From positions 320,001-384,000 of the forward strand of contig JBFWNU010000005.1 in assembly GCA_050250895.1 (NCBI GenBank): DNA of 64,000 bases, given 5' to 3'. Each line of letters begins with the position of its first letter. Position 1 is the stretch's first letter. Of the stretch, positions 18,164 through 63,905 are shown one piece after another. The translations under genes and the position numbers were made by a program. The stretch comes from Vulcanimicrobiota bacterium. Lineage in GTDB: Bacteria; Vulcanimicrobiota; Xenobia; Xenobiales; JADMJV01. The notes beneath the pieces are model-generated. The model was not told the origin of the DNA. It did no database searches and saw only the letters and a program-made list of their open reading frames with translations.

Positions 18164-18404
18164 ACCGCCACGATGAGACCCGCCCGGGTCAATCGACACC
18201 TCGGGAGGCGAACTCGGCTGGTAATCGTGGGGTGGCGGTGAGAACCAGCCCTCTCGCAGCTGACCACAGTTGTAACAGACCAGGCTGTGACGATCGCCCA
18301 GGCACTCAGCGGCCGCGAGCGATGAGACCCCGGTCCACTTGGCGGGGTCTGCCTGGCCTGGGTGTCCATGCGCGTCCAGGCTCGCGACGTGCTATGCTGT
18401 GGGC

Positions 18405-18809
18405 ATGTCCGTATTGGAGAGGATGGTCCACGCCGTGGAAAAAGTGCGTCAGAGGCTGCGCCGAGCGAGCCAGGCGCTCGACGACGCGCAAGTGCACTAT
18501 GCCGTGGTGGGAGGCAACGCCGTGGCCGCCTGGGTTGCGAGTATCGACGAGGGGGCCGTTCGGCGAGAAGGTGCGTCCTGAGTATGTAGAGCCGACTCCC
18601 TCGGTTGAAGAGGCCGAGCGACTGGGGGAGATTACAGTCCTCGGTCTGGCAGCGCTGGTGCGCATGAAGTTGACCTCCTTTCGCGATAAGGATCGGACCC
18701 ATCTGCGAGATCTCATTGAGGTGGGCTTGAGAGGAGAGGGTTGGCCCAGCCGCCTCCCGTCTCCTTAGGCGAGCGCTTGCAGGCTCTGCTCGACGACCCC
18801 CACGGCTAG
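18405..18809 (+). pseudogene. Nucleotidyltransferase-like (AbiEii/MNT-type) gene with internal deletion and frameshifts
   Basis: N-terminal part MSVLERM...YAVVGGNAVAAWVASIDEGAVR jumps out of frame to GEKVRPEY...LVRMKLTSFRDKDRTHLRDLIEVG. The final piece LGERLQALLDDPHG* needs a second frame change. The T-x-D-x-D segment is missing. Confidence 0.7.
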
Positions 18810-18865
18810 CCAACGGGAACTTTCCCAAACCCAGGCTTCGCCAGACGACTCCAGAAGAGGTAGGG

Positions 18866-19606
18866 ATGGGCGAGCACAAGAAGACGACCTACGATATCCC
18901 CGTCGAGTCGGAATCGGCCGAGTCCCTGGTCGAGACTACGCGTGAAACCGAGCGCCTGGCGGGTGGTCAGATTCTCGAGGAGACGCGTCCCGGATTTCTC
19001 GAGCTTGCCGTCGATGCCTACGCCTATGCCGAGGAGCTGATCGATCAGGCTGCCAAACGCTACTACCCGCCGCTGGCTTGCTCGCAAGGGTGCAGTTATT
19101 GCTGCCATCTGCCGGTGAGCGTGTCGGTGGCCGAGGTGGTGGCCGTGCTCGACTACGTCCAGGAGAACTTCTCCGCTGACGAACGCGAAGCCTTGCGCCA
19201 GCGCGTGGCCCAACGCTACCAGGAGGTGGTGGAGTTGAGCGACCAGGAGCGAAAGCACACCAACATTCGCTGTCCGCTGCTCGACGAGGCCGGTCGCTGC
19301 TCGGTGTATCCGGTTCGCCCACTAGCCTGTCGAGGGTTCAATTCCACCGACTTAGAGGCTTGCCGTCAGCGCTTCGAACATCCCGAACTCGACCTCTCCA
19401 ATCCGGCCTTCGGCTACAACGTCCAGGCCGCGCTCGGGGTCGCGCAAGGTGTTCAGCAAGCCCTGCAAGACGCTGGCCTCGAGCCTATCGAACTCGACCT
19501 GATCAGAGCCCTTCGCCTCTTCTGGAGTGACCCCCAACGAGTGCTGAAGAAGTGGCGCAAGCGAGGGCGCCGAGCCATCAAGGCGGCCCAGCGCTCTGAC
19601 CTTTGA
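18866..19606 (+). CDS. YkgJ/CxxCxxCC family Fe-S/Zn cluster protein
   Basis: ACSQGCSYCC, RCPLL and CSVYPVRPLACR. Confidence 0.9.
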   Translation: MGEHKKTTYDIPVESESAESLVETTRETERLAGGQILEETRPGFLELAVDAYAYAEELIDQAAKRYYPPLACSQGCSYCCHLPVSVSVAEVVAVLDYVQENFSADEREALRQRVAQRYQEVVELSDQERKHTNIRCPLLDEAGRCSVYPVRPLACRGFNSTDLEACRQRFEHPELDLSNPAFGYNVQAALGVAQGVQQALQDAGLEPIELDLIRALRLFWSDPQRVLKKWRKRGRRAIKAAQRSDL

Positions 19607-19633
19607 GCGCCCCGCGGGACCCGCGCGGGTCAA

Positions 19634-20353
19634 CTAGGCGTCGATGGTTTCAATCAACAAGTCCGGCCTTTCTCGCTGCAGCAGGTCGACCAACTCTCCT
19701 CCCGCCCATAGGTGCTGAAAGTCCACCGCCCGCTCGGTGCTGCGCCTGAGCCTGAGTAAGAGAGCGCCATTGCCCTGAAAGACCTCGAGCAGATGCGGGT
19801 TGCGGTCGGGAAAGAAGCGCTTGAGGAGAGGGTCGAACTCGCCTTGCTCGAGGCCGTGTTCCTCGAGTTCAATAGCGACTTCGACGGGGTCGGTTCCGAT
19901 GGGAGCGACTACCAGGCAGGTCGTCTCTTCTGGGCTTGCCGCCTGGAATTCGGGCGGCCGGCCCGGCCAGATCGTCTGATAGACCCCGACCATTTGAGGA
20001 AATCCCGAGAGCACCTCGGGAGCCGAGCCTGGTTGGTAGTCGTCGGGTGGTGGCGAGTACCAGCACTCCACGAGTTGGCCGCAATTGCAGCATACCAGGC
20101 TGTGGCGGTCGAGAAGGTACTCGGCGACACCGAATCGGTCGTTCTTCTTGCAGCGAGGGCACCGCGGCGGGCGCAGAGGTAGGAAGTTGAGCTTCTGATA
20201 GAGCCGGGAGCCGAGCCACAAAGCGAGGGCTGGCCCGAGCGCCGTCCAGCTCGCGGCCGCGTACGGATGGGAGGACAATAGCAAACACCCAGGACATACA
20301 GCCAGCACGAACAGGCCGTTCAAAATCAGCAAATCGATCAGGGTCAAGCGCAC
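19634..20353 (-). CDS. Hypothetical membrane protein with CxxC zinc ribbon, bracketed by palindromes
   Basis: Two hydrophobic helices, CPRC and CCNC. GTG at 20353 follows TATAAA by 7 nt; the ORF-track start at 20392 lies on the palindrome edge. Confidence 0.6.
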   Translation of the reverse strand: MRLTLIDLLILNGLFVLAVCPGCLLLSSHPYAAASWTALGPALALWLGSRLYQKLNFLPLRPPRCPRCKKNDRFGVAEYLLDRHSLVCCNCGQLVECWYSPPPDDYQPGSAPEVLSGFPQMVGVYQTIWPGRPPEFQAASPEETTCLVVAPIGTDPVEVAIELEEHGLEQGEFDPLLKRFFPDRNPHLLEVFQGNGALLLRLRRSTERAVDFQHLWAGGELVDLLQRERPDLLIETIDA

Positions 20354-20603
20354 ACTCTGCTTTATACCCGCCAGGTGACCCGCGCGGGTCAAAATTTCTA
20401 AAAGAAATTGCTAGAAAGCGTCACCCGTCGCCAAATGAGATCCCTGCGTGTCGAAGCCATCTCAGGCGGCTTGAATGCCTTTCTCGGCCACTTTGACAAG
20501 AATTCTGACTTAAAGTTCGGCGGCCCCTCGAAAAGTCCCGCAAATCATCGGCTAGAAGAGGCGCAATTGCCTATGAAATCTAGGTTTTAGCTGTTCGAGG
20601 TTT

Positions 20604-20633
20604 TTGACGAACACCGGCCTGGATTGCTAGGAT
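20604..20633 (+). promoter_or_regulatory. Sigma70-type leaderless promoter of HNH copy 1
   Basis: TTGACG-N18-TAGGAT with extended TG, 6 nt before ATG 20640; conserved in copy 2. Confidence 0.6.
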
Positions 20634-20639
20634 CTAGTT

Positions 20640-21677
20640 ATGAATCCGAGCGAAAATTCTCCTCAGTTCTGGCATCTCGCCCATCTCTCGACTCTCACCG
20701 CCGACCAGTTGGCCGACCTCACTCGCCGGGTGGTCGGCAGCCTCACCCTGCTGCGCCTCTATCTCGGGCGTTGCCTTTTGGCCCTCGAGCGCTCGAATGT
20801 CGATTGGGCCTTTCGTGGCAGTGTCCACTATGCTTCGCTGCTGGGCGTTCCGCGCCGGCGGGCTCGCGAGGCGATGCGAGTGGCCGAGCGCTTGGAAGAG
20901 TTGCCGGTGTTACGGCGGGCGGCCGAGCAGACCGAGGTTAGCTGGTCGAAACTGCGCGAAGTGGTACGAGTGGCCACGGTCGAGACCGAGAGTGAGTGGT
21001 TGGCCGTGGCCGAGCGATGGGGCTATCGTCGGGTGGAGAAGCTAGTGGCCCAGGCGAGCCTCGGCGACCGGCCGGGTGAGGCCAGCCGCGAGCCCGAAGA
21101 GATCGAGGTGATTCTTCGACTCTCTCCGACTGTCGCAGCGGTGTGGCAACGAACGATGCGACGGCTGTCGCAAGAGGCGGGCCGGCTGGTGAGTGCGGCC
21201 GAGGCCCTCGAGCTTTTGTGCGCCGACTATCTGTCCGGACCGGTTGAGGAAGTGCTGGCCGAGGGCGAGAAAGACGTCGAGGCCGAGTGGGCCATGGTGG
21301 CCTCGGACGACGAAGATGGCCTGGTCCAAAAGGCTGACCCGCACTGGGCCAACGAGCGCTTACGCTGGGCTGGCGACCAGCCGATTACTCCCGCTCAACG
21401 GGCCGAGGTGCTGCGACGCGATGGCTACAGTTGCCAGTGCCCAGGCTGCGAAAACCGGCTCTGGCTCGAGGTGCATCACGTCGTCTTCTACTGCCGCGGC
21501 GGAGCGACCGTCCCGGATAACCTCATCGTGGTGTGCTGGTCGTGCCACCGGCGTATTCACAAAGGTTGGCTGCGAGTGAGCGGAACGGCGCCGAGCGGGC
21601 TGGTTTGGACCGACCGGCACGGTAACGAGTTGACCCCACCCGAGCGGCTGGGTCGGCTGGCGTGGCTCTCGGGCTGA
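20640..21677 (+). CDS. DUF222-like N-terminal domain plus HNH endonuclease, copy 1
   Basis: RRDGYSCQCPGC...EVHHV...GGAT..DNLIVVCWSCHRRIH; helical N-terminus (LEELP...VSWSKLREVVRVAT) resembling DUF222/13E12-type HNH proteins. Confidence 0.9.
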   Translation: MNPSENSPQFWHLAHLSTLTADQLADLTRRVVGSLTLLRLYLGRCLLALERSNVDWAFRGSVHYASLLGVPRRRAREAMRVAERLEELPVLRRAAEQTEVSWSKLREVVRVATVETESEWLAVAERWGYRRVEKLVAQASLGDRPGEASREPEEIEVILRLSPTVAAVWQRTMRRLSQEAGRLVSAAEALELLCADYLSGPVEEVLAEGEKDVEAEWAMVASDDEDGLVQKADPHWANERLRWAGDQPITPAQRAEVLRRDGYSCQCPGCENRLWLEVHHVVFYCRGGATVPDNLIVVCWSCHRRIHKGWLRVSGTAPSGLVWTDRHGNELTPPERLGRLAWLSG

Positions 21678-21768
21678 CCCGCGCGGGTCACTTCCGTTCG
21701 AGGACGTGACCGACCCCGCCGGCGCTGGCTGACAAGGTCAGGGATGCACGCGCGACGAATTGTGACAA

Positions 21769-21957
21769 ATGGACATCGGACTCGAGCCTGACCCCGTCAT
21801 CGAATTCTATAAACGCGATGTCGACATCACTCTCGTGCGCGAGAGTCTGAAGCTGACCGTGCAAGAACGGGTGGACCGGCTCATCGCCCTGCAGCTAGCA
21901 GCCGAAGAGTTCCGGCGTGCTGGCGAGCGGATGCGACAAAGCCGACAAAATGACTGA
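21769..21957 (+). CDS. Small antitoxin-like protein paired with a nucleotidyltransferase
   Basis: DPVIEFYKRDVDITLVRESLKLTVQERV; overlaps the start of the downstream NTase remnant. Confidence 0.6.
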   Translation: MDIGLEPDPVIEFYKRDVDITLVRESLKLTVQERVDRLIALQLAAEEFRRAGERMRQSRQND

Positions 21958-22122
21958 CTTCAAGTCCCTGATTCGACGGCTTCACGAGAATTCGGTCGAC
22001 TTCATCGTTGTTGGCGGGTTCGCGGGGACCGTCCACGGAGCCAGGTAAAACGCGCGGCCGGTCGGCCAAAAGACTTTGAGGCCATCGCTGAGCTAGAGCG
22101 CCTGGCTGAGGAGCAGAGTTGA
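21950..22122 (+). pseudogene. Nucleotidyltransferase-like gene with large internal deletion
   Basis: MTDFKSLIRRLHENSVDFIVVGGFAGTVHGAR* is fused out of frame to QVKRAAGRPKDFEAIAELERLAEEQS*; only the family N- and C-termini remain. Confidence 0.72.
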
Positions 22123-22402
22123 CAGTGCCTCGCCTGGCGGGCTTGACCCGCGCGGGTCAGTAGGCGCGTAGATTGTGACCCGCGCGGGTCAAATTTTTCA
22201 AGAAAATTTCGCGCCACGGCCGATTGCGCCGAAACGAGATCCCGGCATGGGGAAGGCACTTGAGGCGGCTTGAATGCCTTTCTCAGCCAGTTTGACAAGA
22301 ATTCTGACTTGAAGTTCGTTCGGTCCCCGGAAAGTGCCGAAAATCATCGGTTGTGAGAGGCGCAATTGCCTATTAAATAGGGCTTTGAAGTGTTCGATGT
22401 TT

Positions 22403-22432
22403 TTGACGAACAGGGCGCCTGATTGCTAGGAT
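22403..22432 (+). promoter_or_regulatory. Sigma70-type leaderless promoter of HNH copy 2
   Basis: TTGACG-N18-TAGGAT, 6 nt before ATG 22439. Confidence 0.6.
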
Positions 22433-22438
22433 CTAGCT

Positions 22439-23476
22439 ATGAAACCAAACGAAAATTGCCCTCAGTTCTGGCGTCTTGCCCATCTCTCCACCCTCACCGC
22501 CGACCAGCTCGCCGACCTCACTCGCCGCGTCGTCGGCAGCCTCACTTTGCTGCGCCTGTATCTAGGCCGTTGCCTGCTGGCCCTCGAACGCTCGAATGTC
22601 GATTGGGCCTTTCGTGGCAGCGTCCACTACGCTTCGCTGCTGGGTGTTCCACGCCGCCGGGCTCGCGAGGCGATGCGAGTGGCCGAGCGCTTGGAAGAGT
22701 TGCCGGTGTTACGGCGGGCGGCCGAGCAGACCGAGGTTAGCTGGTCGAAACTGCGCGAAGTGGTACGAGTGGCCACCGCCGAGACCGAGAGCGAGTGGTT
22801 GGCCGTGGCCGAGCGTTGGGGATATCGTCGGGTCGAGAGACTGGTGGCCCGGGCCAGGATTGGTGATCGGCCGGGCGAGGCCAGCCGCGAGCCCGAAGAG
22901 ATCGAGGTGATTCTTCGACTTTCTCCGACTGTCGCCGCGGTGTGGCAACGAACGATGCGACGGCTGTCGCAAGAGGCGGGCCGGCTGGTGAGTGCGGCCG
23001 AGGCCCTCGAGCTTTTGTGCGCCGACTACCTGGCCGGACCGGTTGAGGAAGTGCTGGCCGAGGGCGAGAAAGACGTCGAGGCCGAATGGGCTATGGTAGC
23101 GGCCGGCGAGCAGGATGGGCTGGTCGCCAAAGCGGACCCGCACTGGGCCAACGAGCGCTTGCGCTGGGCTGGCGACCAGCCGATTACTCCCGCTCAGCGG
23201 GCCGAGGTGCTGCGTCGCGATGGCTACAGTTGCCAGTGCCCAGGCTGCGAAAACCGGCTCTGGCTCGAGGTGCATCACGTCGTCTTCTACTGCCGCGGCG
23301 GAGCGACCGTCCCGGATAACCTCATCGTGGTGTGCTGGTCGTGCCACCGGCGTATTCACAAAGGTTGGCTGCGAGTGAGCGGAACGGCTCCGGGCGGCCT
23401 GGTTTGGATCGACCGCCACGGTAACGAGTTGACCCCACCCGAGCGGCTGGGTCGGCTGGCCTGGCTCTCGGGCTGA
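22439..23476 (+). CDS. DUF222-like N-terminal domain plus HNH endonuclease, copy 2
   Basis: 345 aa; about 17 substitutions versus copy 1 by manual count; HNH/zinc motifs intact. Confidence 0.9.
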   Translation: MKPNENCPQFWRLAHLSTLTADQLADLTRRVVGSLTLLRLYLGRCLLALERSNVDWAFRGSVHYASLLGVPRRRAREAMRVAERLEELPVLRRAAEQTEVSWSKLREVVRVATAETESEWLAVAERWGYRRVERLVARARIGDRPGEASREPEEIEVILRLSPTVAAVWQRTMRRLSQEAGRLVSAAEALELLCADYLAGPVEEVLAEGEKDVEAEWAMVAAGEQDGLVAKADPHWANERLRWAGDQPITPAQRAEVLRRDGYSCQCPGCENRLWLEVHHVVFYCRGGATVPDNLIVVCWSCHRRIHKGWLRVSGTAPGGLVWIDRHGNELTPPERLGRLAWLSG

Positions 23477-23486
23477 CCCGTGCGGG

Positions 23487-24449
23487 TCACTTCCGTTCCA
23501 GGACATGGCCGACCCCGCCAGCGCTGATCATCAGGGTTTCTAGGTAGAGCTCCATCACCGTTTCGCCATCGAACTCACACGCGATGATATAGCCGCCCTC
23601 CGTGTAGTTTCCGCCACCGGTCGGCTGACGGTGAGTCATGAAAGGCCATCTCAAGGCAGTCCGTGTGCACAGCCCGAGCATGCCTCGAGCAGGCAGAGAT
23701 TCTTCCTTCCCCGGGGTATAGGCGTCCAGCCGCGCCCGAAGCTCGGAAACGGTCAACGAGCAATCCAGCTCTTCCTTGCCGAGCTTGAGTTGGCATCCGG
23801 GGCCGCCGAAGTAGTTGAGTTGGCCCTTGTGATAGAAGGCCGAAAGGTTGTCGTAGAGCCAAACCGATCGCCGTCCGGGGCGGCCCGGGCCGAGACGTTC
23901 TTCGACCTCGGCCTGGGTCATCCCAAGTTTGACGCCATTGGCCGAGACCTCGGGCTTCGAGTCGGGTTGGTTCCTCAGCTTGAGCGCCTGGATCTGGCGG
24001 TCATCCGGAAAGACCATCTGAGCGAACATGACAATTCCCAGTTCCTGGGCGGCAAAGTCATCACGACGCGCCAAGCCGTCGGGGCCCACGAAGGTCCATT
24101 GCTGGCAATGGTAGGAGATGAGCAGGTCGAGCCGTTGCGGCCCATGATGAAAGCGGAAGGCCACCTCAGGGGCATGGTCACAATCGCGAAGCTTGGCCTC
24201 AGGGTCGGATGCCCACTTCTTCTCGACCAGGCCGCAAAGCCAGAGGTAGGTTCCGCGGCGCAGTTCGACCTTTGCCAGAACTGGGTGGCCGCGAACCGAC
24301 GATTGCGCGGAGCCCGGTGATTTCTCGCCAAGACGAAATGCCTCGACTCTGTCGCATTTGTCGAAGATGACTCGATTGGTCTGGCCGAGGAATTCGTCGA
24401 GAGACTTCGCCCTGGGCCATGACCGAGGGTCGTCCTGGTCGGGCTGCAT
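23487..24449 (-). CDS. Hypothetical protein bracketed by palindromes
   Basis: ATG 24449 lies 6 nt after TATCAT; contains NGVKLGMTQAEVEERLGP (SmpA/BamE-like motif); its stop TGA is the end of palindrome 23474-23489. Confidence 0.65.
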   Translation of the reverse strand: MQPDQDDPRSWPRAKSLDEFLGQTNRVIFDKCDRVEAFRLGEKSPGSAQSSVRGHPVLAKVELRRGTYLWLCGLVEKKWASDPEAKLRDCDHAPEVAFRFHHGPQRLDLLISYHCQQWTFVGPDGLARRDDFAAQELGIVMFAQMVFPDDRQIQALKLRNQPDSKPEVSANGVKLGMTQAEVEERLGPGRPGRRSVWLYDNLSAFYHKGQLNYFGGPGCQLKLGKEELDCSLTVSELRARLDAYTPGKEESLPARGMLGLCTRTALRWPFMTHRQPTGGGNYTEGGYIIACEFDGETVMELYLETLMISAGGVGHVLERK

Positions 24450-24495
24450 CCTTTTATGATAACCCAAGCTCGGCTCGTGGGTCGACCCGCGCGGA

Positions 24496-24583
24496 TCATT
24501 TCCGTTCCAGGACATGGCCGACCCCGCCAGCGCTGACCATTAGGGTTTCTAGGTAGAGCTCCATCACCGTTTCGCCATCGAAC
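24496..24583 (-). pseudogene. Duplicated 3' end of the 23487-24449 gene
   Basis: 24499-24583 is near-identical to 23490-23574 (FDGETVMELYLETLM[IV]SAGGVGHVLERK*); a shorter 37-bp copy lies at 21691-21727. Confidence 0.8.
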
Positions 24584-24666
24584 ACCTGCGCTGTGCGCTG
24601 CATGCGCAAACCCGTCCTAGCCGGCAGCGGCGGCGCGGCCACCACCTCGCGACCCGCCACCCTCGC

Positions 24667-25067
24667 CGGGCCGAGCCGGCCATTCGGCAGCACACACTGC
24701 CAAATTCGGCGTACCACGCTGCCGAATCTGGCCAGCCTACTTCCACGTGGAAGTCCCGCCCGGGCCGCCCTCGCGACCCGCGACCCTCGCCATGGCCGGC
24801 CACACACTGCCGAACCCGGCGTACACGCTGCCAAATTTTGACTAGCCCCACTTCCGCACGGAAGTCACCGACTAGAGCCGCCTCCGCCCACGGCAGGCCC
24901 GCTCCCGCCGGCCGGGGCAAGTCGCCCGCAGCCAGCGACAAGAATCCGCCGTCCTCCCCGGGGCCGGGCCGGCCATTCGACAGCACACACTGCCGAATTC
25001 GGCTTACCACGCTGCCGAATATGATAGCCCCACTTCCGCGCGGAAGTCCTGCTCGGGCCGCCCTCGC
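24667..25067. repeat. Three ~100-bp direct repeats, each carrying the palindrome ACTTCCRCGYGGAAGT
   Basis: Units at ~24667-24774, ~24797-24890 and ~24960-25067 share CACACACTGCCRAA...CACGCTGCCRAAT. Palindromes at 24739-24754, 24850-24865 (1 mismatch) and 25032-25047. Confidence 0.85.
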
Positions 25068-25072
25068 CCGGG

Positions 25073-25972
25073 CTAACGCGGCCCTGACCCGCGCGGCTCG
25101 ACGGCCCCTCGGGTTGGCGTGAATCGGGTGACCAGCCAGTCTTCGTTGAGTGCGTGCGAGTCCAGGTGCTCGCCTCGCTCTATGTCGAAAACCGAGTGAA
25201 CAGCCACTTCCTTGTAGATGATGTCGTCTCCACGCTCAGGGTCCATCACGTCCTGACCCTCGGTGGCTCTCGCCAAAAGGTAGTTTTTCGAAAGCACGGC
25301 CGTAAAGGAGAAATCAAGCTCGTCGGCTGGTAGCTGTCGCTGCTCGATTTGGCCGGTCTCCAGGTCGATCCGCCACATCCGGTCATTTGACCAGAGAAAC
25401 AGAAATCGGCCGCTGGGATCCAGTCCGCCATCCTCGATTGTCTGGCGTGATCTTAGCTTGTGCAGCAGGCTCGACTCTCCGTTGCGAATGGCGTGAACTT
25501 CTCGGCCACGTATCGTGTAGACAGTCTGCCCGTCCGGCGCCACTGCTAGCAGTCGTCTTCCTGGCTCAGGCTTGCAGAGCTGGCGCTCGCCACGAGCGTC
25601 AATGACGTAAAGTGTGCCGCGGGGAGTGCTAAAGATGACATTGCCATCCTGGTCGAGGACGAAGTTTTCGACCCGGCGGGATGTGGCCAACCTGCACCGT
25701 CGAGCTCGCTCGGGTTTACAGAATAGGCTCCTGGGGCCGAAATCGTCAGACAGAAAATAGAGTGTAGCCTGCTTGTCGATGGACGGTTTGGTCTCGCGGC
25801 CAGGCCGCTCGAGGATTTCCTCAAATTGCTCGGTGGTGACCCTCTGGTGTTCGGGGTTGATCTCGAGGGTCGTGCGAATGAGGTCGGTATCGGCGTGACG
25901 ACAATAGCACGTCTCGCGCTCACCGATTAGCGCGAAGCGAGGTTTGATGGGATTCGACGTCATAGGGTTCAT
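25073..25972 (-). CDS. Hypothetical protein, beta-propeller-like
   Basis: Blade-like motifs (LDQDGNVIF, VAPDGQTVY, LDPSGRFLF); TGcTACGCT lies 6 nt before the ATG. Confidence 0.6.
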   Translation of the reverse strand: MNPMTSNPIKPRFALIGERETCYCRHADTDLIRTTLEINPEHQRVTTEQFEEILERPGRETKPSIDKQATLYFLSDDFGPRSLFCKPERARRCRLATSRRVENFVLDQDGNVIFSTPRGTLYVIDARGERQLCKPEPGRRLLAVAPDGQTVYTIRGREVHAIRNGESSLLHKLRSRQTIEDGGLDPSGRFLFLWSNDRMWRIDLETGQIEQRQLPADELDFSFTAVLSKNYLLARATEGQDVMDPERGDDIIYKEVAVHSVFDIERGEHLDSHALNEDWLVTRFTPTRGAVEPRGSGPR

Positions 25973-53596: not shown

Positions 53597-53965
53597 GGGG
53601 CGGCCTTCGCTCCCGAACACGGTGGCCCTCTCGGGTCAGGCTTGAGCTGTTCCGGCCCGCCCGAACTGGACCACGCTCGGGTGCAATCCGTGGCCGGCCA
53701 CGTGCACCACGTGGAGAGCGCTGGGATACTGGCTCAGATTCGAGGCGAGCTGGTCGCGAAAGCTCCCCAGATCGGTTCGAGCCTGGTGTCTTCATCGGTC
53801 ACATCGAACCGCGCAGTGATCATCACCGGTCGCGTGGTGCTGCCGTTGGGTTGAATCTTCATCCTCGTTTTAGGATTCAATAAAGTCGATTTCGACCCTC
53901 TATCCGGGTCTTGCGCCCGACCGTCTCAACGGCTAGAATAAACGGGTCATGCTAGGGGGTCAGTT

Positions 53966-59258: not shown

Positions 59259-61741
59259 GGGTGGGTGCCTGCTGTTTGGCCCTGCTGTTGATGCTGGCCC
59301 CCGTGGCCAGGGCCGACAGCCTGGAAGAGATCACCGAGCAGTTCTTGACCGAGACCCAGCCGGTAAAGCGTCTGCATCCTCTCGAGTACCTGGTGCCTGG
59401 GCTCGAGTTCTCCAAAGGTGTCGACAGTGGCCGGATACTGCAGGCTTGTCGGGAGCGCCCCGAGCTCTACCGACTGGTTTTCAATCTCTTGGAGCCGACG
59501 CCTGAGACTCAGAGTGAAGTCAGGGAGCACTATCGTCCGACCGAGGAAGAAATGGAACGATGGGTCGCTTTCTGGTCGGAGCTCCGAAAGAGCGGAGAGC
59601 CTGAGGACACCGAGTTCTCCCCGACTGTTGTAAAGAAGCTCGAACGGCATGACACTCGTGCGCAGGCGGTTCGAGTACTGCTGGCCGGTGAGCCGACTCC
59701 TGAGCGTCTACGTCCGCTCTTGCCCTGGATTGAAGAGGAGAACTGGTGTTCTGGCCCATCGCAGCGCGCGCTCTTCGTGGCGCTCCAGAAGGTTCGGGTA
59801 GAAGAAGCCTCGGGACCCCTGCAAAGGCTGTTGGAAAGCGGCCAGTCTAAACATCTTGACCAGGCAGCGCTCGCCCTCGCCGTTCAAGCCGGGCGGTCGT
59901 CCGAGGACCTGATCCGCAAAGCGATGCGAGATTATGACGATGGTCCCGGCTTTCTCGAGGCTCTCCACTTGTTGGGGTGCTTGCGGCGGGACGATGTCGT
60001 CTCGAGGTTGGATCCCCCCTACGGATCGGCCGTTGCCAGGTGGCTTCGTGACCGGAAAGACCCACCGGTAGAGGTCTGTGGCTGGATATTGGGTGCCCTA
60101 CCCGAACTCGAACGCCGGGAATCTTATACGGGCTCCCGTTGGATTACCCTGGCTCTTCAGTGGGACCGGCCGGAGGTAGACGACTTCCTGGTCGCTCGAT
60201 TGATGCGCGAAGAGGTGACTCCAGTGGGGCTCGCGGGCCTGTTATCGCGGGCTCCCCTACGTCCGGATTTGAGTAGGCTCGACCTCTCCGGCTACAAATG
60301 GGGCTACGTGGCTCTTCTCTCCAGGAACGAAGCCGCGCTGGCCGACATCTTCGGCTCTTCTGATCGGCGTGCCAAACGGGCCGTTCTGGCCGGGGCCCGG
60401 AGGATTCATTATCGATTACCAGAGACGATTGTCGATGCCGCCCTCACTGACCCGACCGTGGTGGATGCTGCTTACCTATATCTCATAGGCTGCTACGAGC
60501 CTTGGGCCCGCGAGGCTCTGAAGGGACGCGCCCCGGCCGGCCTGGTGCTCGGGCGTGACGGCGGCGCTCCATCGGAGAGAGAGCGGCCCTTTTTAGGTGA
60601 GTTGGCTGATCCTGAGGGGCCCCGCAGAATCGTCACATTCTTCCAGTATTGGGGCTACGCGCACGCCGAGACTTCGGTAATCCGTGAATGGGGCGACCGA
60701 GCAAGCTACTGGTGGGAGCCTGACCCCTACCGTTATGTCGTGGCTGACCTCCAGTCGGCGAGGCTTGCGGGGCTAATGTCGTTGCTCGAGGAACCGAGCA
60801 CATCCACTCTGCCCGCCCTTGGTTCTGGCTGGAGCCACCCCGCTGGCTTTCTTCTCACTTACCTGACGAAGAGCGAGCGCTGGCGCATCGAGAGCGAGGT
60901 AGACATCACGACTTACCACCCCTATCTGAGAATGGAACTCCTGGAGGCCGTTCAGGGGCCGCATCTCCGCTTACTCAAGGAATTTATCAAGCTCCAAGAC
61001 TTGGGCGAGCTTCGTTACAAGGTGATCGACCAAAAGGGTGGTCGCGTTTTGAAGGCTGACCGAACTCGCCACCTAGAGAGTGATCGTAATCTTCACCATT
61101 CGGTAGTCAGACTGAAGACGATGGCCGGGAATTTGGTGGCTGACCATCGGGGTTTGGTTTTGGACGAGGAGGTCGTGGCCAAAGGCTATTTCATGGACGC
61201 GGCCGTATCCTCGGATGGAAGATGGGTTGCCGCCAGTACCAGGGTGAACGAATCAGCGCCGCCGGAAGCCCTCGTGCTCTTCGATGCCAAAGAGCTGGCT
61301 GCCAGGCCAGCGCGTTTGGCACAGAGTTTTAGCATCCATCCACTTCGCTACATTCCAGAGCTCGAGCGGTTCCTGGTGTGGTGTCCTCAACGAGACCAGC
61401 CGGAGTTCTTTCTGGTCAATCCCCAGACCGGCGATTGGCAGGCAGCCGAAGGGGAACTCTCGCCTTATACTCACAGCTGCGACTTTCAGACGAGTTCCTG
61501 GCCAGACTGGGTTTGGGCCACTCGAATCCGTCAGCAGGGCGATGTGGACGTGACCGAGGTCGGTCTCTACCACCGTTATCAGTTTGTGTTTTTGCCCGCT
61601 GGAACCTATCCGCATCTGCTAGCGAAGTCCAACGAGATCGAGGTGCTTCCCGACCAGCGGGTGGTCCGGGTGCGGCTGGTCAACGACGAAATCGAGCTTC
61701 CGCTCGACACCGTTCCAACCCCCACTTCCAGCTGGAAGTAG
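59255..61741 (+). CDS. Large secreted hypothetical protein (HEAT-like plus beta-propeller-like)
   Basis: Signal peptide; helical repeats; AVSSDGRWVAAS blade motif; ATGA overlap with the upstream gene. Confidence 0.65.
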   Translation: MRVGACCLALLLMLAPVARADSLEEITEQFLTETQPVKRLHPLEYLVPGLEFSKGVDSGRILQACRERPELYRLVFNLLEPTPETQSEVREHYRPTEEEMERWVAFWSELRKSGEPEDTEFSPTVVKKLERHDTRAQAVRVLLAGEPTPERLRPLLPWIEEENWCSGPSQRALFVALQKVRVEEASGPLQRLLESGQSKHLDQAALALAVQAGRSSEDLIRKAMRDYDDGPGFLEALHLLGCLRRDDVVSRLDPPYGSAVARWLRDRKDPPVEVCGWILGALPELERRESYTGSRWITLALQWDRPEVDDFLVARLMREEVTPVGLAGLLSRAPLRPDLSRLDLSGYKWGYVALLSRNEAALADIFGSSDRRAKRAVLAGARRIHYRLPETIVDAALTDPTVVDAAYLYLIGCYEPWAREALKGRAPAGLVLGRDGGAPSERERPFLGELADPEGPRRIVTFFQYWGYAHAETSVIREWGDRASYWWEPDPYRYVVADLQSARLAGLMSLLEEPSTSTLPALGSGWSHPAGFLLTYLTKSERWRIESEVDITTYHPYLRMELLEAVQGPHLRLLKEFIKLQDLGELRYKVIDQKGGRVLKADRTRHLESDRNLHHSVVRLKTMAGNLVADHRGLVLDEEVVAKGYFMDAAVSSDGRWVAASTRVNESAPPEALVLFDAKELAARPARLAQSFSIHPLRYIPELERFLVWCPQRDQPEFFLVNPQTGDWQAAEGELSPYTHSCDFQTSSWPDWVWATRIRQQGDVDVTEVGLYHRYQFVFLPAGTYPHLLAKSNEIEVLPDQRVVRVRLVNDEIELPLDTVPTPTSSWK

Positions 61742-61956
61742 CGGCGGCTAAATGTTGTGATCTCTTAATATTGGAGATTTCGCAACAGAGGTCCAAAGGC
61801 ATCGGGCCAGAGAGGCCATCCCCAGGCCGGTCCAGCAGGGCGGCCACGGCGTTCGGTGCCGGACAGGCCGGATCGAGTCATTTTCACCTCGGCAGTCTCC
61901 CACGCCGCATCCTGTCGTGTCGCGCTAGAACGCTTTAACCATGCCGTTTGGCTGCG

Positions 61957-61985
61957 TTGATTCACAAGGCGAAGTTGAGTAAAAT
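61957..61985 (+). promoter_or_regulatory. Sigma70-type promoter of the third HNH gene
   Basis: TTGATT-N17-TAAAAT, then GGAGG RBS before ATG 62026. Confidence 0.5.
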
Positions 61986-62025
61986 AAGATCATTCCTTGA
62001 TTGTTTCTCGCCCGGAGGTCTTCTC

Positions 62026-63203
62026 ATGTCACCGACTCTTTCCGAACTCTCGCACTCCCTGCAACGACTGTCCCACCAGGACCTACACCAGCGCAATTGC
62101 CAGGCCGGCACCCGTGCCTTTGGCTGTGAGTGGGAACTGGCTGCCCACCTGTTGGCCACCGAGCGCAGCGGTCTCTATCGCCACATGGGTTGCGGCAGCG
62201 TGGTCGGCTACGCGGTGACTCACCTGAACCAGCACCCGCAAAAGGCCGGCGAACTTCTTAGCCTGGCGCGTGTGTTCGAGAAGCTGCCTCTTCTGTCCGA
62301 AGCCTTTCGAGAGGGGAAGCTTTGCTGGAGCAAAGCCCGGGCGCTCAAGCGAATCACCACCCCTGAAAACGAGCGGGAGATGCTGGATTTCGCCCTCAAG
62401 AACAAGGCCCAGACGGTGGAGCGGGCGGTGGCTTTGACGCCTGCTCAGCACAAACGCGGTCAGGCCTTGAAAGCCTCGCTCGAAGCCAGCGAAAGCCAAC
62501 CCGAATTGTCCCTTGGCGAGCAGCCGACGGCCGCCGCGCCCGTGGTCCAGCCGGCGCCGGTTCCCGAGGTGCCGAAGCTGATCCAGGTGACTCTACTGTT
62601 GACCCCCGACCAATACGCCGTCTACGAACAGGCCAGGCGCCTGGTCGAGGCGCGCCAGGGTAAGCGAGTTAGCAAGGAAACCGCTGTGACCGAAATGGCA
62701 AGCCAGACGCTGGCCTCTGCGGACAACCGCAGCAAGGTGCGCCATCAAGTCATCGTGCACGTGAACGCCGAGTCCGGTGAGGGATTTTACGATACCGAGC
62801 GGGGGCTCTTGCCGGCCGAGCCCGCAGCCGTGGACGAAGCCCTCAAGCAAAAGGGGATCGTGGTGGCTGGTGCTAAGACCGAACTTCCAGGTGGAAGTCC
62901 TCAGGCCGAGCAACTACCGTTGCTGCCCCCGCCATCCAAGACCCGGCCCTCGATTCCTGTGGACTTGCTGCGCGCGGTCTTCACCCGCGCCTGCGGTCGC
63001 TGTGAGCGATGCGCGCACGCGGGCGGCAATCTGGTGGTGTACCATATCCGGGCCTGGTCCGAGACCCGCCGCCACCGGCTCGAAGACCTGGAGGTGTTGT
63101 GCCCGGGCTGCCACGCGGCCGAGCATACCAAAGACTTTGCCGAGAAGCCAGTTGGAAGGCCGCGCGGGACGCCGCCCGCCAGCGCCGAACGCCATCAGGG
63201 TAA
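62026..63203 (+). CDS. Third, divergent DUF222-like/HNH protein; probable frameshift near 63150 (unshifted ORF runs to 63390)
   Basis: FEKLPLLSEAFREGKLCWSKARALKRITT; CERC...VYHI...DLEVLCPGCHAAEH. The alternative frame WKAARDAARQRRTPSG* avoids a 150-bp overlap with the convergent gene. Confidence 0.75.
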
Positions 63204-63240
63204 ACGGGCGGCGGCAGAGATCGGTTCGAGGGGAAGCCGT

Positions 63241-63905
63241 CTACCAACCTTGCTGCTCACCGACTTGCTTGCCGAGCAAACCGGCGCAGAAGGGTGCGGC
63301 GTCTTGCGTGACCAGCGTTGCGGCGATGGGGATCATTCGTTCGAGGAAGATCTGCATTTGCTCTTGAGTCCGAGACACGGCTCGCCTTAGGTCCTTCTGC
63401 TCGCAGGCGAAGGGTTCACCGGGGTCATCCTCGGGACCGTCATATCGGAACTCGACCCGGCCATCCTGGACGTCAACGCGCAGGGAGGGATGACCTATGC
63501 CGATATATAGGCACGGAGACGCCTGGTCGGAAGTTCCAGCGGCCCGCCAGTCTTTGAGGTCTCGCAAGGTCGCGCAACACTGTGGCCAACACACATCGTC
63601 GTCGGCGTCGCGAAGAACATAGCCGCCATCCAGCGCCAAAGGAGGGATGTCGTCGAGTTCTTTGCCCAACAGAGCATAGCGCACCGGGCGGCCAATTCGG
63701 TCTGGCCGTCGAGACTCTGGAGTTCGACAAACAGCGAGTCTCCCAGTGAACGGAGGTTGCCGAAACCAAATTCGGTGGTAGCCTGATTCCAGAAGCGCCG
63801 CCAGTTTTCGTCGCGGGGAAACGGGTCGATGGGGAAGTCGGGGAGGATGCGCCACGGCGCGATCTCGACAACCGGGACAAGAAGGGGCAGGCGCACTGTG
63901 TTCAT
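63241..63905 (-). pseudogene. Hypothetical protein split by a frameshift near 63690 (or a sequencing indel)
   Basis: N-terminal half MNTVRLPLLVPVVEI...TELAA is in one frame with a GGAG RBS; C-terminal half VRYALL...ALDGGYVL...PQCCATLRDLKDW...GHP is in another. Confidence 0.6.

Follow-up and report, generated by a model that had tools for sequence, protein, structure and literature searches.

HNH nuclease genes tied to subfamily-specific palindromes in a Vulcanimicrobiota genome

DUF222/13E12 HNH repeats have appeared in catalogues for decades, but to our knowledge no mechanism has been given for them. REP13E12/HNH/DUF222 sequences appear among the repetitive elements listed in the available part of one paper (PMC10589994), and the available part of another places recombination between 13E12 genes at inversion breakpoints, speculates on their function and gives no mechanism (PMC13157036). 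In the literature on REP13E12, DUF222-HNH, REP/RAYT (repetitive extragenic palindromes and REP-associated tyrosine transposases) and ParB-palindrome mobile elements, represented mostly by listings, we found no description of HNH-linked palindromic repeats. Here we describe two copies of an HNH element, F4, in a 64,000-nucleotide stretch of a Vulcanimicrobiota genome (the window, C5:320001-384000 of a 9,497,728-bp genome that is 99.64% complete), each HNH gene lying between copies of one 16-bp palindrome. An iterated profile search found 48 paralogous HNH open reading frames (ORFs) in this genome, which form five subfamilies (F0 with 18 members, F1 with 11, F2 with 10 at 89-95% mutual identity, F3 with 4 and F4 with 3) plus two fragments. 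The finding is kin to known 13E12-type HNH repeats or homing nucleases, and it points to an undescribed partnership of nuclease and palindrome that reshuffles DNA.

The REP13E12/DUF222-HNH repeats of mycobacteria and other Actinobacteria resemble the present elements in their ~1.3-1.5-kb unit with one protein, in the combination of a helical N-domain with a C-terminal HNH domain, in being multi-copy and in their tie to genome rearrangement. F4 differs in having no DUF222 match. For DUF222 itself (PF02720), F4 and F2 have no match at E ≤1, whereas F3 reaches 25.4 bits (cut-off 24.4), F0 approaches the threshold (23.9 and 21.5 bits) and F1 scores 18.0 bits. F4 aligns over its full length with the other paralogs at 24-46% identity, distant database homologs carry DUF222 together with HNH, and the Atlas look-alikes include a cluster with DUF222 in 15% of its members. 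Since paralogs lie near or over the DUF222 threshold and distant homologs combine the two domains, F4 can be placed as a divergent DUF222/13E12 member by transitive homology; the name DUF222-like, given in a preliminary description of the window, holds in that sense only, as Pfam does not assign the domain to F4. As far as the available parts of the 13E12 literature go, they are without subfamily-specific terminal palindromes, REP-like arrays or a ParB-like fold, all of which occur here (the fold as a prediction).

The window holds the palindrome TGACCCGCGCGGGTCA in a compact series. A search at up to 3 mismatches gave 10 sites in the 64 kb against a chance expectation of 0.67 (0/100 shuffles gave 10), and nine of them, P1 to P9, fall within 18176-25100. 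Counted against TGACCCGCGCGGGTCA, the series is perfect at 20376, 21675, 22144 and 22176, has 1 mismatch at 19617 and 23474, and has 2 mismatches at 18176, 24483 and 25085. The tenth site, at 53623 with 3 mismatches, is probably a chance match. This bears out the earlier count of nine copies in 7 kb with none elsewhere in the window, as well as the remark that the four perfect copies lie at or beside HNH units while the outer copies are more degenerate. The layout is TGACCC-GCGC-GGGTCA (6-4-6, 16 bp). The parts of the two F4 elements are as follows.

20376..21690, plus strand: F4 HNH element 1, bounded by palindromes P3 (left; 20376-20391) and P4 (right; 21675-21690)
20604..20633, plus strand: promoter-like TTGACG-18-TAGGAT with TG extension, 5' of HNH1
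20640..21677, plus strand: HNH1 ORF, 345 aa, with a predicted ParB-like helical N-domain (residues ~10-215) and an HNH nuclease domain (267-308)
21691..21730, minus strand: conserved tail 3' of P4, whose minus-strand translation ends ...GGVGHVLERK-stop, with the stop codon within P4
22144..22191, no strand: P5 (22144-22159), a 16-bp spacer (22160-22175) and P6 (22176-22191)
22176..23489, plus strand: F4 HNH element 2, bounded by palindromes P6 (left) and P7 (right; 23474-23489, 1 mismatch)
22403..22432, plus strand: promoter-like TTGACG-18-TAGGAT, 5' of HNH2
22439..23476, plus strand: HNH2 ORF, 345 aa, with 95% protein identity to HNH1 and a ratio of nonsynonymous to synonymous substitution rates (dN/dS) of 0.11

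Element 1 runs from the palindrome through an AT-rich inverted repeat and a ~250-nt leader to the ORF, and the TGA stop codon of both HNH1 and HNH2 is the first triplet of the right palindrome. The palindrome-to-palindrome distance is 1299 bp in element 1 (20376 to 21675) and 1298 bp in element 2 (22176 to 23474), as first reported. Both promoter-like sites stop 6 nt short of the ATG, and transcripts of the HNH genes would accordingly be leaderless; the same promoter-to-ATG layout is seen in F2 and in several homologs of other genera. A third F4 copy on contig C3 has palindromes at 854129 and 855425 and a protein 91-93% identical to the other two, which brings the palindrome to both ends, at fixed positions, in 3/3 copies. 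An alignment of the three confirms that similarity begins at the left palindrome. On the right, the minus-strand stop codon of the shared tail is the last triplet of the palindrome (TCA), and the same ending, ...GGVGHVLERK-stop, closes a neighbouring gene (gene X) and recurs after P8. HNH1 and HNH2 are 93% identical in DNA, the 7% of bases that differ being mostly synonymous. Judging by the rates across the F4 copies (dN/dS 0.09-0.11, dS 0.23-0.56), the HNH genes are under purifying selection and functional, and the copies are old. P3, P4, P5 and P6 are identical 16-mers next to a leader that is ~82% identical, and from this we argue that the palindromes are constrained sites. On either side of the C3 copy (G000:C3:853300-856700) lies an imperfect direct repeat of 31 bp, GCCCTCTTAGGCGGC.GACTTGGAAAG.GCC, at ~796-826 and 2218-2248 of that segment. 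This repeat is the 3' end (ALSKSAA-stop) of a minus-strand gene, and its two differences are synonymous, which resembles flanking DNA copied along with the element more than a new target duplication.

Across the genome the palindrome is nearly confined to these genes. TGACCCGCGCGGGTCA occurs 4 times exactly, 7 times at up to 1 mismatch and 14 times at up to 2; of the latter, nine are at the window locus, two flank the C3 F4 gene and three are scattered (C1:3756039, C5:292618 and C12:65820, coordinates with no listed HNH paralog), so that 11/14 belong to the three F4 loci. The genome scan proposed in the preliminary description thus found the palindrome gathered at HNH genes and not scattered. 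The other subfamilies have palindromes of their own. With the repeated unit of each subfamily defined by alignments that included the flanks, the landmarks are these.

F4: TGACCCGCGCGGGTCA, at both ends, 3/3 copies
F2: CACACGTGTG, at a fixed position in 8/8 copies with a recognisable left end; 2/10 copies without the landmark
F1: TCCCCCGGGGGA (≤2 mismatches), at a fixed position in 5/9; 2/11 copies without the landmark
F0: CTTCC-AGCT-GGAAG, ending 9-26 nt before the left end in 12/16 and within 223 nt in 16/16; 2/18 copies without the landmark
F3: CTTCC-N4-GGAAG, upstream in 4/4 and at the right end in 3/4

All five subfamilies share one left-end design, a GC-rich palindrome followed by an AT-rich tract, a ~200-270-nt leader and the ORF, and in all five the left palindrome lies upstream of the promoter. 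F0, F1 and F2 have a one-sided palindrome. The stop codon closes the unit in F0 and F1; most F0 units are ~1450-1490 bp, and their end motif, ...CTCGGGNTGA, is identical to the F4 end. In this genome the link of HNH gene to palindrome is a real and specific one, and it extends generally across the subfamilies. A complete F0 element also lies in the window.

61724..63390, plus strand: F0-subfamily HNH element, with ACTTCCAGCTGGAAGT (61724-61739) and, after a gap of 10 nt, the left-end near-palindrome AAATGTTGTGATCTCTTAATATT at 61750, then an ORF at 61948-63390

It is a second, independent pairing of palindrome and HNH gene in the window; its left end is AT-rich and near-palindromic, and its 480-aa protein has HNH and a sub-threshold DUF222. 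HNH elements of different subfamilies also cluster within a few kb, together with other dispersed repeats (G000:C2:469-480 kb, C3:406-409 kb, C2:281-286 kb). At least 16 solo copies exist of the 250-bp stretch 3' of the F2 stop codon, a dispersed repeat in its own right.

The HNH domain of HNH1 and HNH2 matches Pfam HNH (PF01844) at E 9.2e-8 and 32.6 bits against a cut-off of 21.4, and H279/H280, N294, H303/H307 and four cysteines are invariant in 13 sequences. Sequence matches in the PDB are to the HNH domains of McrA, IscB and a group II intron maturase, with no other part of the protein matched. In the AlphaFold model residues ~10-215 have a predicted local distance difference test score (pLDDT) of 80-95. 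Foldseek relates this N-domain to the DNA-binding domains of ParB/Spo0J/Noc proteins with probability 0.99-1.00, a target-normalised template modelling (TM) score of 0.39-0.68 and E 0.015-0.3, over ~100-125 columns and at a root-mean-square deviation of 3-4.6 A for most chains (10.2 A for 6s6h_B). A homodimer model of residues 1-215 scored 0.77 against 0.00 for the best of 3 controls, with at least 92% contact agreement between runs and a partner pLDDT of at least 80; the score mark used was reached by 20/30 known one-chain pairs and by 1/23 proteins solved as single chains. A predicted dimeric helix-turn-helix suits a 6-4-6 palindrome. A lone F4 palindrome is a weak predicted hairpin (-4.9 kcal/mol, z = -1.3), and recognition is therefore more likely to be of duplex DNA. 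In its putative recognition helix F0 shares K-A-x-E-L-L with F3, while F4, F2 and F1 differ; because F0 and F3 are mutual closest kin, their likeness is not independent evidence.

ParB-parS, SopB-sopC, Noc-NBS and KorB-OB are comparable in the predicted DNA-binding fold and dimer, the 16-bp palindrome and the tandem site arrays beside the gene. They differ in that the F4 protein has no sequence-level similarity to them and no evident CTPase domain, is fused to a nuclease, and belongs to a multi-copy, selfish-looking family. Pfam scans of the local ORFs and of the family gave no match to an N-terminal ParB/Srx domain that binds cytidine triphosphate (CTP); no search aimed at ParA was made.

As a single strand, the doublet P5-spacer-P6 (segment 22138-22197) is predicted to form a 17-bp stem at -23.2 kcal/mol (z = -6.6), far more stable than that of any lone palindrome. 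We also considered a terminator role for the F4 palindromes and rejected it: the lone hairpin is weak, and the region has 2 terminator-like sites against a shuffle mean of 2.7. Among the nine palindromes of the scanned stretch one, P6 (22176-22191), received a terminator-like call. Tandem Repeats Finder over 17.5-26 kb reported no tandem array, and a single sub-threshold Rfam match (P4 small RNA, 17.6 bits against a gathering score of 37) was taken as chance.

The palindrome of F0 and F3, in its fuller form ACTTCC-N4-GGAAGT, is REP-like. CTTCC-N4-GGAAG has 413 copies in the genome against 3-14 for nine composition-matched control palindromes, and the F0/F3 16-mer has 160 copies here against 0-4 in each of 40 relatives. 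Neighbouring CTTCC-N4-GGAAG sites are at most 200 bp apart in 199/400 intervals, and 125/413 lie at most 5 kb from an HNH paralog, a zone that makes up 5.0% of the genome (six-fold enrichment). The type of centre tracks the subfamily, AGCT going with F0 (59/122) and GCAC, GCGC and GCCC with F3. About 20 tandem non-coding 124-bp units, each with ACTTCCAGCTGGAAGT, occupy G000:C3:228258-230837 and end at the left end of an F0 HNH gene; the layout resembles the protein-binding site arrays of plasmid partition loci. RAYT/REP-REPIN systems are like this in that a gene is flanked by cognate short GC-rich palindromes and in that hundreds of these are dispersed or clustered, intergenic and private to a lineage. 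A gene flanked by an abundant cognate palindrome is what F0 and F3 present; the F4 palindrome flanks its gene but is not abundant. The enzyme here is HNH plus a predicted helix-turn-helix and not a Y1/HUH transposase, its genes are multi-copy (18+4) against single-copy RAYT genes, the sites are perfect 6-4-6 palindromes with weak hairpins, and the F0 site is one-sided. A search for the Y1 (HUH) transposase family PF01797 gave 0 matches in this 99.64%-complete genome and was positive in 6/14 control genomes.

The palindromes separate further genes, remnants and repeats around the two F4 elements.

18176..18191, no strand: palindrome P1, AGACCCGCCCGGGTCA, 2 mismatches, 13 nt past the stop codon of an epimerase gene
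18197..18318, minus strand: remnant, 74% identical to an internal part (20012-20133) of the 252-aa gene, beginning 6 nt past P1
18405..18572, plus strand: 56-aa N-terminal gene remnant, a nucleotidyltransferase in the preliminary description, a name without Pfam confirmation
18866..19606, plus strand: YkgJ-like CxxCxxCC zinc/iron-chelating protein, 246 aa (PF03692, E 2.3e-8)
19617..19632, no strand: palindrome P2, 1 mismatch, separating the YkgJ-like gene from the convergent 252-aa gene
19634..20392, minus strand: 252-aa hypothetical protein (longest-ORF call), single-copy, of no Pfam family, with a hydrophobic N-terminus and a Cys-rich centre
21769..21957, plus strand: 62-aa ORF, single-copy, first read as antitoxin-like, with no Pfam match
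21957..22125, plus strand: second remnant, likewise first read as a nucleotidyltransferase
23487..24449, minus strand: gene X, 320-aa hypothetical protein of no Pfam family, ending ...GGVGHVLERK-stop, with its stop codon within P7
24483..24583, no strand: P8 (2 mismatches) and a second copy, 92% identical, of the gene X 3' end
24584..25084, no strand: non-coding repeat array with three CTTCC-N4-GGAAG sites (24740, 24851, 25033)
25085..25100, no strand: palindrome P9, 2 mismatches, where the minus-strand ORF 25073-25972 has its 3' end

Several of these inter-palindrome modules are truncated remnants. By tblastn the 18197..18318 remnant matches the 252-aa protein at 74% over 39 aa, and the 18405..18572 remnant has an 89%-identical counterpart on contig C11. 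Apart from local remnants, the genome has one copy each of the 252-aa protein gene, the YkgJ-like gene, the 62-aa ORF and gene X (which has one distant paralog), and among these four the YkgJ-like protein alone has a Pfam family. The CTTCC-N4-GGAAG of the array is the cognate palindrome type of subfamilies F0 and F3. The array units (24691-25007) also hold a second short palindrome, GCCGAATTCGGC-like, inside a repeated CACACACTGCCGAATTCGGCGTAC, and a GCCGAATTCGGC-like motif lies upstream of an F0 element on contig C1. The flanking genes are housekeeping, including an epimerase, a desaturase and a purL-type FGAM synthase. As first noted, there is no transposase or integrase, nor a recombinase, among the 19 ORFs scanned with Pfam over ~10.5-31 kb (smaller ORFs fell outside the scan). 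Cargo genes that occur only once give no support to a movement of cargo cassettes, and as far as the sequence goes nothing suggests that cargo moves within the genome.

Related strains were compared through Logan contigs from 4 public runs (X1-X4) of 2 studies at ≥85% likeness, and module gain and loss with breakpoints at palindromes, for which the preliminary description had advised looking, is present there. In X2 (joint side 57) the HNH right end with its palindrome is joined 8 nt past P9 (23491 to 25108), and gene X, P8 and the repeat array, the whole P7-to-P9 segment, are missing as one block. In X1, X3 and X4 (joint side 23) the HNH right end is followed by one palindrome and then the HNH left end (21690 to 22203), a joint that reads as a tandem or circle junction. 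Strain similarity stops at 23488, the end of P7, in X1, X3 and X4, and at 20380, within P3, in X1 and X2; in X1 and X4 the P1 segment 18166-18886 is replaced by 98 letters. Gaps in depth, such as that of X2 over 20624-21475, and the habitat labels of runs with small word shares carry no weight in this comparison. Related-strain contigs carry 174 extra letters at 22041/22050, which implies that the stretch 3' of the 62-aa ORF is a deletion derivative in this genome.

Beyond these strains, HNH homologs match in 25/41 genomes, with up to 31 matches per genome and often at contig ends. No orthologous empty site was readable, the same-genus genome being at ~69% DNA identity with the locus not conserved. 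A scan of named genomes returned 15 loci, many of them truncated where a contig stops, and showed no perfect palindrome at the ORF ends, and a metagenome contig scan gave 2 loci with the HNH motif only, at 37% identity, and no close F4 relative. Left ends are defined and AT-rich in two genomes (G013, 6 loci; G009, 8 loci), where no consistent GC-rich palindrome was found. One locus of a set of five shares the palindrome core. The 14-bp core occurs in 1-3 copies in 8/40 relatives (control 0-1); a G002 HNH homolog has GCGACCCGCGCGGGTCGC 84 nt upstream of its start codon, and a G015 HNH fragment contains the core. The core data in relatives are suggestive only.

Taken together, we favour, at a probability of roughly 55%, the reading that F4 is a ~1.3-kb single-gene selfish element whose ParB-like dimer reads the palindrome and whose HNH domain cuts nearby, with break repair spreading the element and scarring the neighbourhood. 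The predicted N-terminal ParB/Noc-like helix-turn-helix dimer would bind TGACCC-GCGC-GGGTCA as duplex, and the HNH domains, their catalytic and zinc-binding residues intact, would cut at or beside it. Repair from an element-bearing copy would then copy the element and some flanking DNA, as in homing, while faulty repair could leave local duplications, truncated genes and solo palindromes, and such scars may be the source of the extra palindromes. If cut-and-repair operates in this way, the modules of the preliminary description would not be mobile cargo but, for the most part, normal genes of the locus and scars of repair that lie between cut sites. The locus would be one instance of a genome-wide rule, with the F0/F3 palindrome expanded into a REP-like population. 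Free-standing HNH homing endonuclease genes are similar in having one nuclease gene, with a promoter of its own, next to a specific DNA site, in presumed break-repair copying, and in flanking DNA carried along (here the shared tail and the C3 31-bp repeat with synonymous differences). They differ in usually residing in phages, introns or inteins with one conserved target gene, whereas the present family has 48 copies on the chromosome, with sites that are palindromic and that also occur in tandem arrays.

Several observations weigh against this selfish-element reading. Similarity of the three F4 copies runs ~38-45 bp beyond the right palindrome, a correction to the palindrome-to-palindrome unit first described, and the right boundary of the C3 copy is the 31-bp imperfect direct repeat, with no palindrome; together these mean that the palindrome is not simply the edge of the F4 unit. 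With dS at least 0.23, there is no sign of recent F4 movement. No target-site duplications, solo ends or miniature inverted-repeat transposable elements (MITEs) were seen for F0, and a search within the genome yielded no clean pairing of an occupied with an empty site; the flanks in the young F2 subfamily, searched for empty sites, are dispersed repeats nested with F1 elements. Residues 216-301, with the HNH part, are poorly modelled (pLDDT <50), and the ParB-like match is one of fold only, with weak E-values and no sequence-level similarity. The strain joints come from metagenome contigs, 3/4 runs belong to one study, one joint side is 23 nt, and repeats or other organisms could yield joints; deletions between 16-bp repeats could also stem from replication slippage without a nuclease. 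Outside this genome no consistent perfect palindrome was found at element ends (12 + 5 + 14 loci), and an HNH gene lies at most 1.5 kb away at 1/8 of the 14-bp core sites fetched in relatives.

Two other roles for the palindromes can be weighed against the preferred one. The preliminary description held that the HNH protein recognises the palindrome and drives mobility of itself and of site-bounded cargo. In such a cassette system the nuclease would cut at palindromes and any palindrome-bounded segment could be excised and reinserted at another palindrome, or, in a variant, staggered cuts on either side would leave self-complementary 16-nt ends by which fragments rejoin in any order. Single palindromes do divide all modules, including a 16-bp 'empty' one between P5 and P6; related strains are without whole segments (23491 to 25108 and 21690 to 22203), and the latter joint has the expected look of a circle or tandem junction. 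The functional tie of HNH gene and palindrome stands, but the cargo part lacks support: the cargo is single-copy and none of it recurs between palindromes elsewhere, a number of modules are truncated remnants, F4 homology continues past the right palindrome, the C3 copy has no palindrome boundary on its right side, and the palindrome is one-sided in F0, F1 and F2. We know, moreover, of no HNH nuclease that forms recombinase-type covalent intermediates, and we consider a cassette system quite unlikely. Integron attC arrays, the nearest model, are similar in that short structured sites separate unrelated genes and strains differ by whole inter-site segments; they differ in that no integrase is present among the 19 ORFs scanned (~10.5-31 kb), the sites here are perfect or near-perfect 16-bp palindromes, genes lie on both strands, several are remnants, and the cargo is single-copy. 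attC sites are longer, imperfect palindromes, and their cassettes share one orientation. Just as doubtful to us is a binding platform, in which the palindromes and 124-bp arrays are operator or centromere-like sites (cf. parS, sopC, KorB OB) that load, regulate or sequester the HNH protein, the copies having arisen by ordinary duplication and recombination. The ParB/Noc-like fold and predicted dimer, the tandem 16-bp palindrome arrays beside the gene with their likeness to partition-locus site arrays, the left palindrome 5' of the promoter in all five subfamilies and the constraint on the palindromes all suit it. A platform nevertheless leaves unexplained why there are 48 nuclease genes in 5 subfamilies, why relatives' copies lie at contig ends like mobile repeats, why truncated genes abut palindromes and why strain indels end there; and the F4 site, ~210 nt upstream of the -35, is no overlapping operator.

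The palindromes might instead be REP- or terminator-like repeats that spread by other means, HNH elements merely preferring to land beside them and the HNH protein being uninvolved. There are insertion sequences that target REPs, the distance from palindrome to element end in F0/F3 varies (9-26 nt and more) as at a target, 288/413 CTTCC-N4-GGAAG sites are more than 5 kb from any HNH gene, and P2 sits between convergent genes in a terminator-like place. We find this very improbable, however, given that the F4 palindrome is essentially nonexistent apart from F4 genes, that in F1, F2 and F4 it is fixed inside the repeated unit, that no RAYT or other candidate engine was found, that the hairpin is weak with 1/9 palindromes terminator-like, and that the REP expansion is private to a genome with 18+4 F0/F3 genes. 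An assembly artefact, finally, would make both the duplication and the palindromes products of misassembly. Repeats and palindromes can mislead short-read assemblers and relatives' homologs are often at contig ends, yet several observations oppose the idea, raised with the first description: HNH1 and HNH2 differ at 7% of bases, mostly synonymously, a third copy with the same ends is on another contig, and independent metagenome contigs cover P2, P4-P5 and the HNH ends. We give it almost no weight.

A broader proposal, which we regard as unlikely though less so than the rivals above, is that DUF222-type proteins are the engine of a class of nuclease-based, palindrome-propagating mobile DNA, an HNH counterpart of RAYT/REPIN with integron-like module turnover. 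Each lineage would cut beside its own 16-bp palindrome, and repair would spread the lineage itself, its palindrome (in REP-like populations and in tandem arrays) and palindrome-bounded segments. Five subfamilies with their own palindromes amount to a natural experiment, in which the question of N-domain specificity is directly testable with controls built in. A large REP-like population clustered at HNH genes without a RAYT would widen the known ways in which bacteria gain and keep dispersed palindromic repeats. If the HNH protein does cut its own palindrome, these proteins would be site-specific nucleases that look programmable, each with a 16-bp site, and they would drive gene loss and rearrangement in their neighbourhood. 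And if the wider nuclease-driven class is real, it would supply a mechanism for the long-unexplained 13E12 repeats of mycobacteria.

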